From a virus: a stretch of 64,000 bases of DNA. Positions 1,982 through 54,380 of this stretch are shown piece by piece (positions within the stretch are counted from its first letter, which is position 1; each line of letters begins with the position of its first letter). The notes under the pieces are model-generated. The model ran no database searches. It was not told the origin of the DNA and worked only from the letters and a program-made list of their open reading frames with translations. The position numbers and the translations under genes are program-made. The stretch covers positions 1-64,000 of IMG/VR virus record IMGVR_UViG_3300020057_001229; one strand, given 5' to 3'.

Positions 1982-3136
1982 TTCCTTCTGAAAGAAGCCC
2001 CCGTCCTCCGAGGGCGGGGATGAATTTCAGTTAGTTAAAACCTGAAATCAGTGTAATATAGTTCCATGTTTCTAACCTACAACTTCAGAGTCAAAGACGC
2101 TTCTACCAAGAACCTTCTGAAGAGAATGGCTTCTGACACAAACTTCGTTTGGAACTTTTCAAACAACATAGTCAAAGACAACTGGCAGAAATCTAGAAAA
2201 TATACCTCTAAGTATGATTTGAACCCTCTCTTAAAGGGAAGTTCTAAATACCTTAATATAAACTCGCAGACAATCCAAGCTGTAGCTCATGAATGTGTTT
2301 TGAGGACACAGAAAGCAAAGAAATAAGTCAGATTCAGAACCGCAAAAAGAAACTTGGGGTGGGTTCCAATAAACGGGCAGACCTTCAAACTCCAAGGCTC
2401 AACTCTCATTTATAATAAGAAATACTTCAAACTTTGGAAATCTAGAGACCTGCCTAAAGACGCCCTTATTAAAACAGGATGCTTCTCCCAAAACTCTGAA
2501 GGAAAGTGGTTTTGTAATATAACGTTTGAAACTAAGCTTCTAGCTCGGAAAGCCCCCGAAAGGGAAGTCGCTCTAGATCTCGGTTTAAAAACCCTCTACA
2601 CAACTTCAGACGGTTTAAAGTACGAACTGAGAGTTAATAACACTAAGAAATATGCTTTAAAGCTGGCTAAAGCGCAAAGAGCTAAGAAGAAAAAACAAGT
2701 TACTAAGATCCACACCAAAATTAAGAACTCTAGAAAAGACTGGAACCACAAAGAAACCACAAAACTAGCATCGAATTACAACCTTATTTTCGTCGGAGAC
2801 GTAAGTTCTAAGGCGCTGAAGAAAACTAAGATGGCGAAGTCTGTTTCAGACGTAGCCTGGTTTCAGTTTAAAACTTTCCTGAAGTATAAAGCTATTAAGC
2901 ACTCAGGAGAGATGCATGAAATTAAAGAAAGATTTTCCACAGTAACTTGCTCGGTTTGCCTGTCGAAGACAGGTCCGAGCGGACTAAGAAACTGTGGAGT
3001 AAGAGATTGGATATGCAGCGGTTGTGGCTCTAGCCATGACAGAGATACAAACGCTGCTTCAAACATTCTCCGTTTCGGGCATGAAACGCTTAACTTAAAA
3101 GGAATCCCACGGCTAAAGCCGTGGGGAGGATGTCAA
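1982..3136 (+). mobile_element. IS200/IS605-family (tnpB-only, IS1341-type) element
   Basis: Follows TTAG; left-end hairpin CCCCGTCCT-CCG-AGGGCGGGG; right end GGAATCCCACGGCTAAAGCCGTGGGGAGGATGTCAA; removing it restores ...PGTLKA* for the flanking minus-strand ORF. Confidence 0.9.
2066..3136 (+). pseudogene. tnpB: TnpB RNA-guided nuclease interrupted by an in-frame TAA at 2324-2326
   Basis: ORFs 2066-2326 and 2354- are in the same frame; TYNFR N-terminus, ALDLGLK, CSVC/CSGC zinc ribbon, HDRDTNAA. Confidence 0.9.
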
Positions 3137-3583
3137 CGTACCTGGACGTTCAAACATCTGCTTAAGCCTAAGGCTCTCTGCCGTAATGCGGTAGAAAAGT
3201 TGATCGGCGTAGGTGCCGTAGGTGGTAGCTGCATACGCTGTGCGGAAGCCTGCGTAAGTCATGCGTTCATAAATACGGTACGCATCTTCGACCTTGAAGT
3301 AGGTCACTTCGTTAAGTGCCGTCTCCAAGTTCTCAAGGGAGAGCGTAGCCGTATCTATAGAATCACAAAGAGCCGAGTAGGTGTTTACACAACCTACCGG
3401 CGAACGGATGTCGGTGTAGTCAAGGCGAAGTGTCGTAAGCGAGCTTAAAGCTTCAGCACGACGGAACCAACGGGGATCATTCTCAACCGGAGCTTCAGGC
3501 GTAGGAGCTGAATCACTCTTCTTAGAAGAGCTACCGCAAGACACTAAAAATGTGAGACAGCACAAAGCTACAAGCCTACGCAC
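3113..3583 (-). CDS. Putative lipoprotein; C-terminus altered by the IS insertion
   Basis: Signal peptide and lipobox-like LVSC. Confidence 0.6.
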   Translation of the reverse strand: MRRLVALCCLTFLVSCGSSSKKSDSAPTPEAPVENDPRWFRRAEALSSLTTLRLDYTDIRSPVGCVNTYSALCDSIDTATLSLENLETALNEVTYFKVEDAYRIYERMTYAGFRTAYAATTYGTYADQLFYRITAESLRLKQMFERPGTLTSSPRL

Positions 3584-10536: not shown

Positions 10537-10579
10537 AAAAAGAAAGAACCCCGCTTCCTAGTCGGAGAGCGGGGTTCTT
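10537..10579 (-). terminator. Attenuator terminator upstream of the Ser/Thr tRNA operon
   Basis: AAGAACCCCGCT/AGCGGGGTTCTT 12-bp stem followed by TCTTTTT. Confidence 0.85.
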
Positions 10580-10605
10580 ATATCGTGCAAACACGCCGTA
10601 AGAAG

Positions 10606-10668
10606 TCACCCGCCCTCGGTCGTCGAGGAGGTTGAGCAGCTACTTGTCGTGGAAACGAAATTCTTCAT
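10606..10668 (-). promoter_or_regulatory. Ser/Thr-rich leader peptide MKNFVSTTSSCSTSSTTEGG
   Basis: 11 of 20 codons are Ser/Thr; its 3' end GAGGGCGGG..TTCTTA can pair with the terminator 5' arm. Confidence 0.85.
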
Positions 10669-10706
10669 ACGTTGGATAATCTCACAAGCAAAAACGAAAC
10701 GCAAGC

Positions 10707-12468: not shown

Positions 12469-12509
12469 AAAACCCCGCTAACCGATGTCAGCGGGGCTTC
12501 GTCAACTAA

Positions 12510-15805: not shown

Positions 15806-15850
15806 GAAACCTAATCTACACCAGATCTTCGTGGAGTCAAGACAACGCAA

Positions 15851-15882
15851 CAAAAAAGGCGCTCCGTGAAGAGCGCCTTTTT
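15851..15882. terminator. Bidirectional intrinsic terminator
   Basis: AAAAAAGGCGCTC-CGTGAA-GAGCGCCTTTTT. Confidence 0.8.
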
Positions 15883-31872: not shown

Positions 31873-32360
31873 AAAGTCTAGACAAAAAGACCGCTACGGT
31901 TTAAAGGTGCAATACCTTCTCCTTCCATCGCTACCGTAAAGGTGCAGAGCAACCCGTCCCTTTCTATTTTTCAAGGCAGAAAGGGAAACGAAGTGAGCAC
32001 CATCTGGATGAAGCTGTTCAATAAGGTCGAAGAGGTAGCCAAGCCCTTCCTCGTCATTTCTGAAACCGCCACCTCGACCTGGCACTACCACTTCCGACTG
32101 GTAGGTCCCGAGGGCGCGGCAGCGCTATGCGGCGCGAAACTCGGATGGGACACGACGATGCCGCTCTCGACGTGGGGGCTCAAGGATCACATCCCGTCCC
32201 GCTACTGCGGAACATGCGAAAAGGAAGCGCGTGCTCGCGGTTTGTGGGCGGGGTGAAGCTTAAGCTCTGCGTCTGCGAGAAGACCGCTGACGACTAAAAA
32301 ATTCTCATCTACGCCTCGAAAAGTATTGACGAAGAGACCGTACTACGATACGGTTAATTT

Positions 32361-32414
32361 ATGCAATACTTTCTCCCTCCATTGCTACCCCTCCTGACCA
32401 AGCTCTTACCGTAA
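32361..32414 (+). promoter_or_regulatory. Leu/Pro leader peptide MQYFLPPLLPLLTKLLP
   Basis: 7 Leu and 4 Pro of 17 codons; TTGACG-N17-TACGGT promoter ending 6 nt upstream; hairpin over the stop codon. Confidence 0.85.
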
Positions 32415-50723: not shown

Positions 50724-51668
50724 ATGTTTTTCACTATCACGGCTGACCCCATTAAGGTCACAGAAGTAAAGAAGGCTCCAAGCCTTCCTATCAAGCAGAT
50801 CCTCCTCGACGAGAAAGGCGATAAGGTCTTAGAGAACATCTCAGACGAAGCAGAAGTCTTTTGGGCAGACGTAAAGAAAGCCTTCCCAGCTCTCGAAGCG
50901 CAGCTCAAAGCGATCTTCGGTGGTAAAGACCGTCTCTCTGTTGGCGATCTCAAAAAGAAGATGGGGACTGTAGAAGACGACGAAGCAGCTCTCTGGCTCT
51001 CGCACGTTGACTACAACGACGCATGGCGTATTCAGCGGGAGCTTCCTGAAAACGGCGACGACGATGAAGAAGGCAACAGGGTCGAGTATAAACAGATCGC
51101 GATCCAGCTCAACATCGGACCTTCACTTGTGAAAGCTATCGACGCTGACCCCATTGCGCAAAAGTTCTTCGAGGCTTACTCAAAAATGACTGAAGGTGAT
51201 CACCTTCACCCTAACCACACCCAGTCGATTGCTTGGGCGCGTGTCTACACCTTGAAAGACAAATGGATCATCGAAGAGCTTCAAAGCGATATTTGGGGCG
51301 CTAGTCTTAAAGCTAATGAAATTCCAGACGATGCTAAAGCCTACGACATCATCAATAAGATGCCGAAAGAGGAACAGTCTGACCTCGAACGCTTCTTTCA
51401 TAAGCACTTCATGGATTGGGACAAGAAGCTCATTGCATCCGTCATCAACATGGCGCGTAAGGCAGGTGTCAAAGACATCTATATGTGGGACGAGTCGATC
51501 AAGCAGAAGGTGACACGCTCCAAAAGCAAGCTCGACAAATACTACAAGATCGTACCGCGTGACTTAGGCTTCAAGAAAGATACGCTCAACATCGCAAACA
51601 AAGATCGTCAGGTGTGGCACCGCATTGTCGCCACCTTCAAAGACAGAATTACAGCGAGTCTCAAATGA
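50724..51668 (+). CDS. Hypothetical protein, paralogue of 3871-4755
   Basis: Shared motifs throughout. Confidence 0.8.
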   Translation: MFFTITADPIKVTEVKKAPSLPIKQILLDEKGDKVLENISDEAEVFWADVKKAFPALEAQLKAIFGGKDRLSVGDLKKKMGTVEDDEAALWLSHVDYNDAWRIQRELPENGDDDEEGNRVEYKQIAIQLNIGPSLVKAIDADPIAQKFFEAYSKMTEGDHLHPNHTQSIAWARVYTLKDKWIIEELQSDIWGASLKANEIPDDAKAYDIINKMPKEEQSDLERFFHKHFMDWDKKLIASVINMARKAGVKDIYMWDESIKQKVTRSKSKLDKYYKIVPRDLGFKKDTLNIANKDRQVWHRIVATFKDRITASLK

Positions 51669-52141
51669 AAATCGTAAAAGAGAAATATCAAATTGTAGCC
51701 AAAGATTGGTCTAACGAAACATATTGGGCTTGCTTCGCTTTCGAAGACGAGATCCCCGACGACCTCCACTGCACGCACAAGTTCTTCGGTGAACAAAGCG
51801 ACGAAAGCCGGGACAAGATCTTGGAGACGATGGATTCTTACTTCGCCAAGAAACCTTACGAGACCATCCAAGCCAAGTTTGACCACGAAGAGTTCTTCGG
51901 GGCTGATAAAGACGTTCGGGTTCTTCGGCTTGAGGACGGCGCTAGCCTCGATCCGTTTCTTCTCGATCTCCGCAAGAAGCTTGACGCTTTCGCCGACGAC
52001 AGCTTCCCCGGCTACAAGCCGCACGTCACGACGGACCTCCCCGTAGTCGAGAAGCCTCTGACACGCTACTGTCTTTGTCAGGGTGACAAGATTATCAAGG
52101 AGTGGAAAGCAATGGAGAAAAAAGCAGCAGCAGCAGCTTAG
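51665..52141 (+). CDS. 2H phosphoesterase (Acb1/LigT-like)
   Basis: Two HxT motifs: LHCT and YKPHVT; KYQIVA leader; ATGA overlap at 51665. Confidence 0.8.
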   Translation: MKIVKEKYQIVAKDWSNETYWACFAFEDEIPDDLHCTHKFFGEQSDESRDKILETMDSYFAKKPYETIQAKFDHEEFFGADKDVRVLRLEDGASLDPFLLDLRKKLDAFADDSFPGYKPHVTTDLPVVEKPLTRYCLCQGDKIIKEWKAMEKKAAAAA

Positions 52142-52194
52142 GGTTGACGAGTTCTGTGAGAGCTGCTAGGATTTGGGTAATGGGAGTTCACAAA

Positions 52195-52236
52195 ATGTTC
52201 CGTTCCGTAAATAACAATAATGAAGAAACAAGCTAG
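52195..52236 (+). promoter_or_regulatory. Asn/Glu leader peptide MFRSVNNNNEETS
   Basis: GGGAG SD; promoter TTGACG-N17-TAGGAT; four tandem Asn codons. Confidence 0.88.
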
Positions 52237-52261
52237 GGTCGAAAGTCCTTTCTGGCTTACG

Positions 52262-52290
52262 ACCCGTTTGGTAACCCAAGCGGGTTTTTT
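52262..52290 (+). terminator. Attenuator terminator upstream of tRNA-Asn
   Basis: ACCCGTTTGG-TAAC-CCAAGCGGGT plus T-tract. Confidence 0.88.
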
Positions 52291-52307
52291 ATTTGTATCG
52301 AATTTAT

Positions 52308-52385
52308 TCCGGTGTGGGGGAAGTTGGTAATCCCGCCTCGCTGTTACCGAGGAGCATGTACGTTCGATCCGTACCACCGGAGCCA
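52308..52385 (+). tRNA. tRNA-Asn(GUU)
   Basis: Cloverleaf; loop CTGTTAC; G73 + CCA. Confidence 0.92.
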
Positions 52386-52633
52386 ACTTTTTTAAAGGAC
52401 ACCATGAGAACTTTGAACACGCATCCGAATTGTCCGCCGACTGTCAGCAAAAACTCTGACGGTACCTTTACTGCACACGACATCGGCGAGATGTTGGATT
52501 GGCTTGCGGGAAGTCATGGGGACAGCGGTGTCCTGAAAATGTTGGCTCCAATGAAAGCAGTTGATACAGGTCGAGTCAGTGGTGTTGAGCCTGATGTTAG
52601 CGTTAGTTTAGGAAGTTACGAAGTGTGTGTAGT

Positions 52634-53137
52634 TTAAGCAGTTTCTAGCCTTATTTCTTGGTGTATTTCACGGTGGCAGTTAGCGCAGACCATAACACAT
52701 TTGTCTAATTCTTGTTTTGTACGTTCCCAAGATCTAGTGTGTCCTCCTTGAGAGGGATTGAAATCTTTCACGTTAGGGTCGAGATGGTGAAACTCAAGGG
52801 CGCTTACGCATTTACTGTAGCCGCAACGAGCACAGGAGCCTCCTTTATATGCAATAGATAGCTGCTTTAACTCTCGTCTTCTGTTCGTTACTTTGTCTTT
52901 ACTGTTACAGTTTATCGAGCAGAAACGTGTTTGGGTTCCAGTTAGAGGTTTTTGGCATACGTGCCATGTGCAATAGTTTCCGTTAGGTAGAGGGTTGCGT
53001 TCGTTTAGTGAGCGGGTATTGTGTAAGCCAAAGGGCGAGCAAGTAAGACAAAATTTGCGGTTACACAAATTTCTTTTTTTACCGTCAATTACAGTGTTTA
53101 TTGAGAAATGTGTGTTGCACTTTAGACAAGTAGGCAT
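52634..53137 (-). CDS. Free-standing HNH endonuclease with Cys-rich N-terminus
   Basis: CARCG...ALEFHHLDP..K...KC..VCANCH. Confidence 0.88.
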   Translation of the reverse strand: MPTCLKCNTHFSINTVIDGKKRNLCNRKFCLTCSPFGLHNTRSLNERNPLPNGNYCTWHVCQKPLTGTQTRFCSINCNSKDKVTNRRRELKQLSIAYKGGSCARCGYSKCVSALEFHHLDPNVKDFNPSQGGHTRSWERTKQELDKCVMVCANCHREIHQEIRLETA

Positions 53138-53202
53138 AAGTGTTTTCCGTAGCTAAGAGTTGGGTAACCAAATGGTGTTACTTAATCTAAGCGACGGTCA
53201 TG

Positions 53203-53290
53203 GGGAGAGTAGCCTATCGGCACGAGGCAGCGGCTTGTTAAGCCGCCAGTGGACGTAAGTCCGAAGTGGGTTCGATTCCCACCTCTCCCT
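53203..53290 (+). tRNA. Atypical tRNA with GUU anticodon and long variable arm, no CCA
   Basis: GGGAGAG/CTCTCCC acceptor, GCGGC-TTGTTAA-GCCGC, TGGAC-GTAA-GTCCG arm, GTGGG-TTCGATT-CCCAC. Confidence 0.75.
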
Positions 53291-53316
53291 CTTTTTTTCT
53301 ATAAGGAATTTTCGAT

Positions 53317-53358
53317 ATGCTGTTTCGACTAGAAGAAGAACAAATTAATTCGGGCTGA
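53317..53358 (+). promoter_or_regulatory. Glu leader peptide MLFRLEEEQINSG
   Basis: AAGGA SD; GAA GAA GAA; 3' TCGGGC is complementary to the terminator 5' arm. Confidence 0.88.
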
Positions 53359-53385
53359 GAGAGTCGGTAACGACAACTCTTTTAT

Positions 53386-53412
53386 GCCCGATCTTTGGAT
53401 CGGGCTTTTTTT
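53386..53412 (+). terminator. Attenuator terminator upstream of the tRNA-Glu pair
   Basis: GCCCGATC-TTTG-GATCGGGC-TTTTTTT. Confidence 0.9.
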
Positions 53413-53416
53413 ATGT

Positions 53417-53491
53417 GGCGTGCTCGTCTAGTGGTTAGGACGCTTGGTTCTCAGCCAGGAAAGAGGGGTTCAATTCCCCTGCACGCCTCCA
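53417..53491 (+). tRNA. tRNA-Glu(CUC)
   Basis: Cloverleaf; loop TTCTCAG; CCA. Confidence 0.9.
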
Positions 53492-53496
53492 AGTTC

Positions 53497-53570
53497 GGCG
53501 CATTCGTCTATTGGTAGGATTTCAGAATTTCAATCTGAAGAAAGGGGTTCAATTCCCCTATGCGTCACCA
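53497..53570 (+). tRNA. tRNA-Glu(UUC)
   Basis: Cloverleaf; loop ATTTCAA; CCA. Confidence 0.9.
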
Positions 53571-53624
53571 CTTTACACATTAAAGATTCAGTGTCAGCCC
53601 AGCACCCGCAAGGAGCTTTGACGC

Positions 53625-54380
53625 ATGAATCGCACTCTCTCCGGTTGGTTATCTGCTCACGAAGCGATATGTCCTTCGTGGAGAGAGTTTGTGCATCACG
53701 ACCTACCCTTCGATCACTTAGCACTTAGAACCTTTGCTCACTACGGCGTCGGACAAGACCTCGGTCTAGATGCTCTCAGCTCCATGATCTGCCAAGACAT
53801 GGGTTACAAAGTAGCAGCCGAGTACAACCTAACTGAAAAAAAGGTACGAGCTTACTACCTCGAACGTCAAGACTACCCCAAGATCTTTATCAGCGAGCTT
53901 CTTTGGAGGGAGTTCACTGAAGATGTCCAAAAGGTTTTAGAACGTGTTTTGTCCCACAATGCACCTGTAAGGCTTGCGCCGTGGCTCTTCAAAGGAACTA
54001 GACCTTGGATCAACGCAAGTAAAGAGGACTACGACGCGGTAGCTAAGGAGTCTAGCTACGGCGCTTGGCTGATTGCTTGGGGTTATGTCGCCAACCACTT
54101 CGCCGTTCACCTCAGCATGGACAAGTCGATAGCTCTCTGCAAAAGTCTCAACTTGTCGATGAATGGTGACGGCAAAGTGCAAGGCTCTAAGAGTGTAGGT
54201 TTAGAACAGTGCTCCACGAAGGCGGATCAAATTGTCCACCCACTCTTCGGAGCCTATCTCGACGGCGGCTTCGTTGAGTTCGTTCAGCGTTGGCAAGACC
54301 CCCAAGATCCATTCAAGCTCTACTCCGGCTTCGTAGAGAAGTCGGCAAGCAAAGTCATGGAGTCTACGGGGGAGCGTTGA
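53625..54380 (+). CDS. DUF1338 family (2-oxoadipate dioxygenase/decarboxylase-like)
   Basis: FDHLALRTF, PKIFISEL, ESSYGAW...G..ANHF, LEQ.ST.AD, FVEF..R, A.K..EST. Confidence 0.8.
   Translation: MNRTLSGWLSAHEAICPSWREFVHHDLPFDHLALRTFAHYGVGQDLGLDALSSMICQDMGYKVAAEYNLTEKKVRAYYLERQDYPKIFISELLWREFTEDVQKVLERVLSHNAPVRLAPWLFKGTRPWINASKEDYDAVAKESSYGAWLIAWGYVANHFAVHLSMDKSIALCKSLNLSMNGDGKVQGSKSVGLEQCSTKADQIVHPLFGAYLDGGFVEFVQRWQDPQDPFKLYSGFVEKSASKVMESTGER

Follow-up and report, generated by a model that had tools for sequence, protein, structure and literature searches.

Phage tRNA genes are usually explained by the matching of codon usage; a newer view holds that they replace host tRNAs that defence systems have cut. 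To our knowledge, both explanations treat these genes as constitutively expressed. Regulation through leader peptides is familiar from amino-acid operon attenuators such as trpL, hisL, pheL, leuL, thrL and ilvL, in which the 5' arm of the terminator has an alternative partner, a strand that the terminating ribosome masks. In E. coli, a leader peptide also stands ahead of aminoacyl-tRNA synthetase genes (pheST/pheM). In the available part of one published account, attenuation involves a translated short open reading frame (ORF) with tandem codons, at which ribosome stalling favours read-through, and a leader peptide precedes the synthetase gene cysS of Deinococcus deserti (PMC4007540). The trn operon of Anabaena PCC 7120 is described, in the sections available, as a silent tRNA array that is induced by translational stress (PMC8421152; PMC10272220) and controlled by the repressor TrcR, acting at direct repeats over the -10 box (PMC8421152). 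Phage tRNAs are reported, in the accessible part of a further account, to replace host tRNAs cut by the defence nucleases retron-Eco7 PtuAB and PrrC (PMC11555353).

We describe here an element from the genome of an uncultured phage that resembles the amino-acid operon leaders in having a short ORF, tandem cognate codons and a terminator with an alternative pairing. We propose that it is a ribosome-mediated (leader-peptide) transcription attenuator gating two phage tRNA-Glu genes, and assign this reading a probability of about 0.65. Unlike trpL-type attenuators, the element is encoded by a phage and would gate tRNA genes, including that for the tRNA reading the leader codons, rather than genes for biosynthetic enzymes; it also differs from them in showing no clear protector (1:2) hairpin and no match to the Rfam leader families. 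As in the synthetase leaders of pheST/pheM and cysS, the speed of the ribosome on cognate codons would control a translation component for the same amino acid. Those leaders control the charging enzyme, whereas the phage element would control the tRNA gene itself, giving a direct feedback loop. T-box riboswitches are likewise terminator/antiterminator switches that report the tRNA status for one amino acid, but they bind uncharged tRNA directly and have no ORF, whereas the proposed sensor of the phage element is a translating ribosome. The Anabaena trn operon offers another parallel, as an extra tRNA set that, in the sections available, is off until translation is impaired; its control as described there is not codon-specific, and the strings ‘attenuat’, ‘leader’ and ‘terminator’ have no occurrence in the available text of PMC8421152. 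Similarly, the tRNAs that counter retron-Eco7 PtuAB and PrrC serve the phage upon host tRNA depletion, but that account, in its accessible part, has the phage tRNA expressed from a strong promoter and describes no element for sensing (PMC11555353).

The window, by which we mean the whole stretch of DNA that was analysed, is the first 64 kb (64,000 nucleotides) of an 88,687-bp single-contig virus record (IMGVR_UViG_3300020057_001229), an 88.7-kb contig of an uncultured phage. The phage genome has a G+C content of 48% and 15 tRNA genes. Its matches to PHROG and Pfam families include a tail fibre, HNH endonucleases, a DNA methyltransferase, a transposase and a BCS1-like ATPase, and point to a tailed phage carrying mobile elements. 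The same DNA is present in six microbial-mat or metagenome DNA runs. Motifs resembling a Shine-Dalgarno (SD) sequence precede 28 of the 47 long ORFs, against a background of 17%, indicating that SD-dependent initiation is usual in this phage, and promoter-like sites of the TTGACx type precede several units of the genome. From these two features together, we take the host to be a bacterium that uses ordinary sigma-70 promoters and relies on SD motifs for initiation. Within the transposase gene (2354–3448, phrog_506), a segment of 259 nt (window positions 2575–2833) is 98% identical to an otherwise unrelated metagenome contig; it is probably a mobile insertion sequence common to mat phages or bacteria.

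The predicted Glu leader, MLFRLEEEQINSG, occupies 53317–53358 on the plus strand and comprises 13 codons followed by TGA (53356–53358). An earlier note on this DNA, made from the letters alone, had pointed to an AAGGA Shine-Dalgarno motif and a run of GAA GAA GAA; the former lies at 53303–53307 (plus strand), 9 nt ahead of the ATG at 53317, and the latter at 53332–53340 (plus strand), forming codons 6–8 of the leader. The pairing partners that it had named were also located, with TCGGGC of the leader end at 53350–53355, its partner GCCCGA at 53386–53391, and between them an inner hairpin of GTCG (53363–53366), the loop GTAA (53367–53370) and CGAC (53371–53374). The terminator it had described has an 8-pair stem at 53386–53405, of which six pairs are G-C, with the loop TTTG and a run of seven T at 53406–53412; the same stem was recovered by an independent terminator scan. 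The run of T ends at 53412 and tRNA-Glu(CTC) starts, according to ARAGORN, at 53417, which leaves the claimed gap of 4 nt. This first putatively gated gene (53417–53491, plus strand; Rfam tRNA score 54.4 bits) is followed by a second, tRNA-Glu(TTC) (53497–53570, plus strand; ARAGORN; 58.5 bits), whose product reads the GAA codons of the leader. tRNA-Glu(CUC) reads GAG, a codon that is absent from MLFRLEEEQINSG.

The earlier note had interpreted the region downstream of the codon run as a nested structure. As a refinement of that reading, the outer six pairs and the inner hairpin are predicted to stack as one continuous 17-pair hairpin. This antiterminator hairpin (53350–53391, plus strand) pairs 53350–53366 with 53371–53391, and in nascent RNA extending up to the terminator loop it is the minimum-energy fold, at -22.3 kcal/mol. 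Its 3' strand ends in GCCCGA, which is also the 5' arm of the terminator. The two predicted folds thus have these bases in common, bearing out the claim that they exclude one another. When each fold was enforced on the full RNA, the antiterminator reached -22.5 kcal/mol versus -25.1 kcal/mol for the terminator, so that the two states differ little in stability. If a ribosome on the stop codon is assumed to mask the RNA as far as 53371, the terminator alone is predicted to form (-15.8 kcal/mol). The TGA of the leader sits inside the antiterminator 5' strand (53350–53366), which also takes in the two sense codons before it, and the first GAA is 18 nt upstream of that strand.

Among 1,000 dinucleotide shuffles of the 45 nt upstream, 118 could pair all six bases of the arm, none folded as well as the native sequence, and none did both. 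The whole 125-nt spacer that holds the Glu element folds with z = -2.63. A search for a protector or pause (1:2) hairpin gave weak pairing of a 5' U-run with the GAA run in the whole-spacer fold, and none in folds starting from the ATG. Rfam returned 15 matches at E values up to 10 in 51800–54000, in which no small RNA match was above threshold, no leader family (Trp, His, Leu or Thr leader) was found and no T-box riboswitch appeared.

An element of the same build as the Glu element lies 1.1 kb upstream, ahead of a tRNA-Asn gene. The Asn unit is headed by the promoter-like site TTGACG-17-TAGGAT, with a TG, at 52144–52172 (plus strand; promoter scan). Its predicted leader, MFRSVNNNNEETS (52195–52236, plus strand), has 13 codons, including AAT AAC AAT AAT at 52210–52221, and GGGAG stands 8 nt before the ATG. 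The antiterminator and terminator of this sister element fall within 52236–52292 (plus strand), where GGGTCG (52236–52241) can pair with CGACCC (52260–52265) and an 11-pair terminator stem (52261–52286) is followed by a run of T. The last base of the leader stop codon, TAG, is the first base of the arm GGGTCG. The terminator lies 22 nt before tRNA-Asn(GTT) (52308–52385, plus strand; ARAGORN), the gene that this element would gate. This tRNA is unlisted by the Rfam tRNA model at E values up to 10, and its D-arm looks unusual.

Predicted energies at the Asn element are -19.7 kcal/mol for the nascent antiterminator and, in the full RNA, -25.3 kcal/mol with the antiterminator versus -26.7 kcal/mol with the terminator; in the shuffle control, 0 of 1,000 sequences matched its antiterminator. 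The Glu and Asn units can be aligned with the SD motif, the ATG, the stop codon and arm, and the run of T in matching columns, and both leaders have 13 codons, with the regulatory codons starting at position 6 and the stop at the arm. In the phage genes, AAC makes up 75% of the Asn codons; in the Asn leader, three of the four are AAT.

Three further short ORFs are associated with tRNA genes or resemble leaders. A Ser/Thr-rich ORF of 20 codons, MKNFVSTTSSCSTSSTTEGG (window positions 10537–10706, minus strand), stands at the front of a cluster of small ORFs, three tRNA-Ser genes and one tRNA-Thr gene, in a region with z = -3.4; by eye, its end is complementary to the 5' arm of a strong terminator of 11 bp. 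The 17-codon Leu/Pro ORF MQYFLPPLLPLLTKLLP (window positions 32327–32414, plus strand; ORF 32361–32414) begins a few nucleotides past a promoter-like TTGACG, precedes tRNA-Pro and four tRNA-Leu genes, and has the highest Leu plus Pro fraction of 756 short ORFs; by eye, no canonical terminator was found downstream of it. The Arg leader MFFLSTSSRSFSKAKRRRV was considered as a supporting case and set aside, as by eye it lacks a canonical terminator and it is not notably enriched in Arg (outside the top 8 of 756). Elsewhere in the genome, tRNA-Met (15806–15879, minus strand) is preceded by a terminator and then by the promoter-like site TTGACT-16-TAGATT, with the tRNA about 7 nt further on and no leader ORF. 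To judge from this arrangement, it is a plain promoter-driven tRNA of the same genome, and the phage therefore appears to use a plain promoter where a gate is absent.

We compared these features with the rest of the genome. On both strands of the 88,687 bp, three consecutive GAA codons occur at two loci (0.004 expected per 125 nt) and four consecutive AAY codons only at 52210 (0.0007 expected per 125 nt); the runs in the Glu and Asn leaders stand directly ahead of their cognate tRNAs. In a set of 861 ATG-initiated ORFs of 8–30 codons, runs of at least three E are found twice, in the Glu leader and at the C-terminal end of a real gene, and a run of at least three N is confined to the Asn leader. 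When 756 short ORFs were ranked by their fraction of cognate residues, the Leu/Pro leader and the Asn leader each came 1st and the Ser/Thr leader 2nd–3rd, while MLFRLEEEQINSG, with only three regulatory codons, ranked 6th for Glu, a modest enrichment. A scan of the genome gave 19 strand-specific terminator hairpins, and in two cases a tRNA follows within 40 nt. Both of these (2/2) are accompanied by a short ORF with its stop codon touching the antiterminator strand, versus 1 of the 17 others. At that one (12473–12496 of the window, minus strand), the end of a short ORF, MTSRSGKRFGKRK, falls on a strand able to pair with the 5' arm of the terminator; MTSRSGKRFGKRK contains no codon run, and no tRNA lies downstream.

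A natural variant of the locus, X5, is a diverged copy on contigs of a metagenome run from another study, and the conservation of the element is judged from one contig of depth about 4. The variant differs at 14 of 290 and 22 of 129 positions in the 2H phosphoesterase gene upstream of the Asn unit, and the contig covering 53142–53366 has two differences in 225 nt. Among the differences listed, all but seven of the total, none falls in 53338–53384, a span comprising the leader end, arm and inner hairpin. The terminator has all four bases of its loop changed and a run of T that is shorter by one. T53392>G occurs together with A53399>C, turning a T-A pair of the stem into G-C. Folding predicts that either stem change alone weakens the terminator by 4–5 kcal/mol and makes the antiterminator the favoured state of the full RNA, and that both changes together give -17.6 kcal/mol for the terminator and -22.7 kcal/mol for the antiterminator. 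By these predictions, the change at 53392/53399 is compensatory and preserves both helices, as seen at one pair on one low-depth contig. Further upstream, X5 has 184 unlike letters in place of 52037–52228, the stretch with the promoter and the greater part of the Asn leader.

Immediately upstream of the Glu element lies a tRNA with a long variable arm and the anticodon GTT (53203–53291, plus strand; Rfam 52.6 bits), which is also present in X5. It has a type II variable arm, T as its discriminator base and no encoded CCA, unlike its three neighbours, and could be an odd tRNA-Asn or a tRNA of the Ser, Leu or Tyr type that reads Asn codons. The Glu leader region starts 12 nt after this tRNA and is therefore probably part of one transcript with it. 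An HNH endonuclease cassette (52602–53141, minus strand; ORF 52634–53137; phrog_2255, E = 1.3e-41) separates the Asn unit from the Glu unit. It is missing from X5, where 52601 is joined to 53142, so the HNH gene is taken to be a recent insert; it has the look of a free-standing homing endonuclease that entered the space between two tRNA units not long ago. In its absence, the Asn and Glu units, with a 77-codon ORF and then the long-arm tRNA between them, run head to tail.

As the earlier note had indicated, no promoter is evident near the tRNA-Glu genes: the promoter scan gave no plus-strand site between 53292 and 53416, and the 4 nt between the run of T and tRNA-Glu leave no room for one there. 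The likeliest source of transcripts reaching the Glu leader is the promoter-like site at 52144–52172, read through the Asn gate. Two nearer candidates were rejected. TTGGGT-17-TAATCT (53160–53188) is weak, fails the promoter scan and has G as its second -10 base in X5, and TTCCCA-18-TATAAG (53276–53305) also fails the scan and would strip the SD motif from the transcript. Just upstream of the Asn unit, the gene at 51668–52141 (plus strand) is a member of the 2H phosphoesterase / 2'-5' RNA ligase superfamily. Its product has two HxT motifs, and PF13563 is matched by 12 of the 20 members that were aligned. A function in RNA-end repair adjoining the gated tRNAs is possible.

Searches for relatives of the locus used several of its parts. 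None were found through the downstream 251-aa protein or the BCS1-like ATPase, and the exact 27-nt terminator pattern had no match in viral genomes (IMG/VR). A 20-nt piece of tRNA-Glu(CTC) matched 91 viral loci, all from unrelated phages, and three consecutive GAR codons were present within 220 nt upstream in 0 of the 91. The anticodon arm of the tRNA at 53203–53291 retrieved 20 loci, with no tRNA homologue among them by eye, and that of tRNA-Glu(TTC) retrieved none. A generic pattern (Glu-codon run, gap, run of T, gap, start of a tRNA-Glu D-arm) gave three matches, none with a tRNA or a similar leader. To judge from the 0 of 91 loci and 0 of 3 pattern matches, a Glu leader of this kind is not general among phage tRNA-Glu genes. 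Homologues of the 2H phosphoesterase comprise 23 proteins, from one viral and 22 metagenome loci; tRNAs occur at one of these 23 loci, in an unrelated array, and no other gene of the window is common to any of them. This gene is therefore no anchor for relatives. Beyond near-identical or variant copies no relatives emerged from these searches, and conservation is represented by the single variant contig. On an unrelated 380-kb viral contig (about positions 40–112), a long hairpin with a run of T lies directly before a tRNA-Glu gene, with no Glu-codon ORF upstream; terminators beside tRNA genes therefore occur outside this phage as well. Our search of the openly available literature turned up no description of tRNA genes controlled by leader-peptide attenuation, the nearest published cases being the Anabaena array, the leaders of synthetase genes and the phage tRNAs that counter tRNA-cutting defences.

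The Glu element thus combines an SD-led ORF, tandem codons, a terminator, an exclusive antiterminator and a stop codon placed within the antiterminator strand. The regulated read-through that the earlier note had proposed is supported by sequence analysis only, through the geometry, the competing folds, the Asn twin and the compensatory change. On these grounds we regard the attenuator reading as well supported by sequence logic, by an internal replicate, by the controls and by one natural compensatory change. Leader translation, the response to Glu-tRNA supply and the start of the transcript are what we infer from the DNA, and the following sequence of events is proposed.

RNA polymerase would come from upstream, most likely from 52144–52172, passing through tRNA-Asn, the 77-codon ORF and the long-arm tRNA before transcribing the 13-codon leader. 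The ribosome footprint sizes used for the leader geometry are assumed from established knowledge. When Glu-tRNA(UUC) is plentiful, the ribosome would reach the TGA at 53356–53358 and, by its expected footprint, cover roughly 53344–53371, which includes the antiterminator 5' strand. With that strand covered, GCCCGA (53386–53391) would pair with 53398–53405 and transcription would stop at the run of seven T, 4 nt before tRNA-Glu. Were the ribosome to stall on the first or second GAA (53332–53337), its front edge would remain, again by the expected footprint, upstream of about 53350. The 17-pair antiterminator could then form once 53391 had been made, no terminator would form, and both tRNA-Glu genes, and possibly the gene at 53625, would be transcribed. 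A ribosome stalled at the third GAA would cover the first bases of the arm, so the geometry there is borderline. Fresh tRNA-Glu(UUC) would speed translation of the leader and shut the gate, forming a negative feedback loop. Without translation, the antiterminator would be the default fold and the gate would be open; since no protector hairpin is evident, an absence of translation should open this gate, unlike that of trpL. Under this scheme the phage probably makes its tRNA-Glus mainly when ribosomes read glutamate codons slowly.

Other explanations can be weighed against this scheme. The one that survives best, which we nevertheless regard as unlikely, is that the leader is translated and the switch works, but that together they report any slowing or loss of translation, with the Glu codons adding little. 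This would agree with the folding of ribosome-free nascent RNA into the antiterminator, with the lack of an evident protector hairpin and with the presence of only three Glu among the 13 codons (rank 6 of 756). It does not account for the match between the leader codons and the tRNA that follows in two elements built alike (NNNN with tRNA-Asn, EEE with tRNA-Glu), nor for the Leu/Pro and Ser/Thr leaders, which rank 1st and 2nd–3rd genome-wide for their cognate residues. Less probable still is an ordinary leaky terminator that closes the upstream tRNA unit and lets a constant trickle of read-through pass, the ORF and the alternative fold being coincidences. Against this, codon runs that are jointly rare (0.004 and 0.0007 expected per 125 nt) fall at exactly these sites, 0 of 1,000 shuffles reproduced either antiterminator, the stop codon lies on the arm in both elements, and the loop in X5 is fully replaced, yet no change is listed in the leader end and arm. 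These observations weigh against a simple terminator even though the leader ORF is a predicted one and terminator-like hairpins occur directly before tRNA-Glu without a leader elsewhere, as on the 380-kb contig. Small RNAs occur inside the T4 tRNA cluster, but a small stable RNA or tRNA-precursor processing signal with no role for translation is very improbable here: it would suit a well-folded (z = -2.63) 125-nt spacer between tRNAs and the weak Rfam sRNA matches (best anti-hemB, 21.7 bits versus a gathering score of 49.5, E = 0.037), yet no family reaches threshold, those matches were rejected, and the SD motif, the ATG, the in-frame codon run, the stop on the arm and the Asn-codon twin would go unexplained.

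The attenuator reading can be extended to the neighbouring leaders, although we hold the extension only tentatively and think it more likely wrong than right. In it, the two gates, for Glu and Asn, would act together with the Ser/Thr and Leu/Pro leaders, and perhaps the Arg leader, as codon-by-codon alarms for the loss of host tRNAs, for example to anticodon nucleases of anti-phage defence, each inducing exactly the replacement tRNAs needed and then shutting itself off. Combined with the 2H phosphoesterase and the odd long-arm tRNA that has an Asn anticodon, these alarms would amount to an inducible island of the phage for responding to tRNA damage.

If the attenuator reading is true, classical attenuation, known for biosynthetic and synthetase genes, would extend to tRNA genes themselves. 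Compact, amino-acid-specific parts of about 110 nt would also become available for synthetic biology, and the Glu element would be a simple, testable sensor of tRNA depletion during infection. The phage, for its part, would measure decoding speed codon by codon and top up only the tRNA that is short, with feedback built in.
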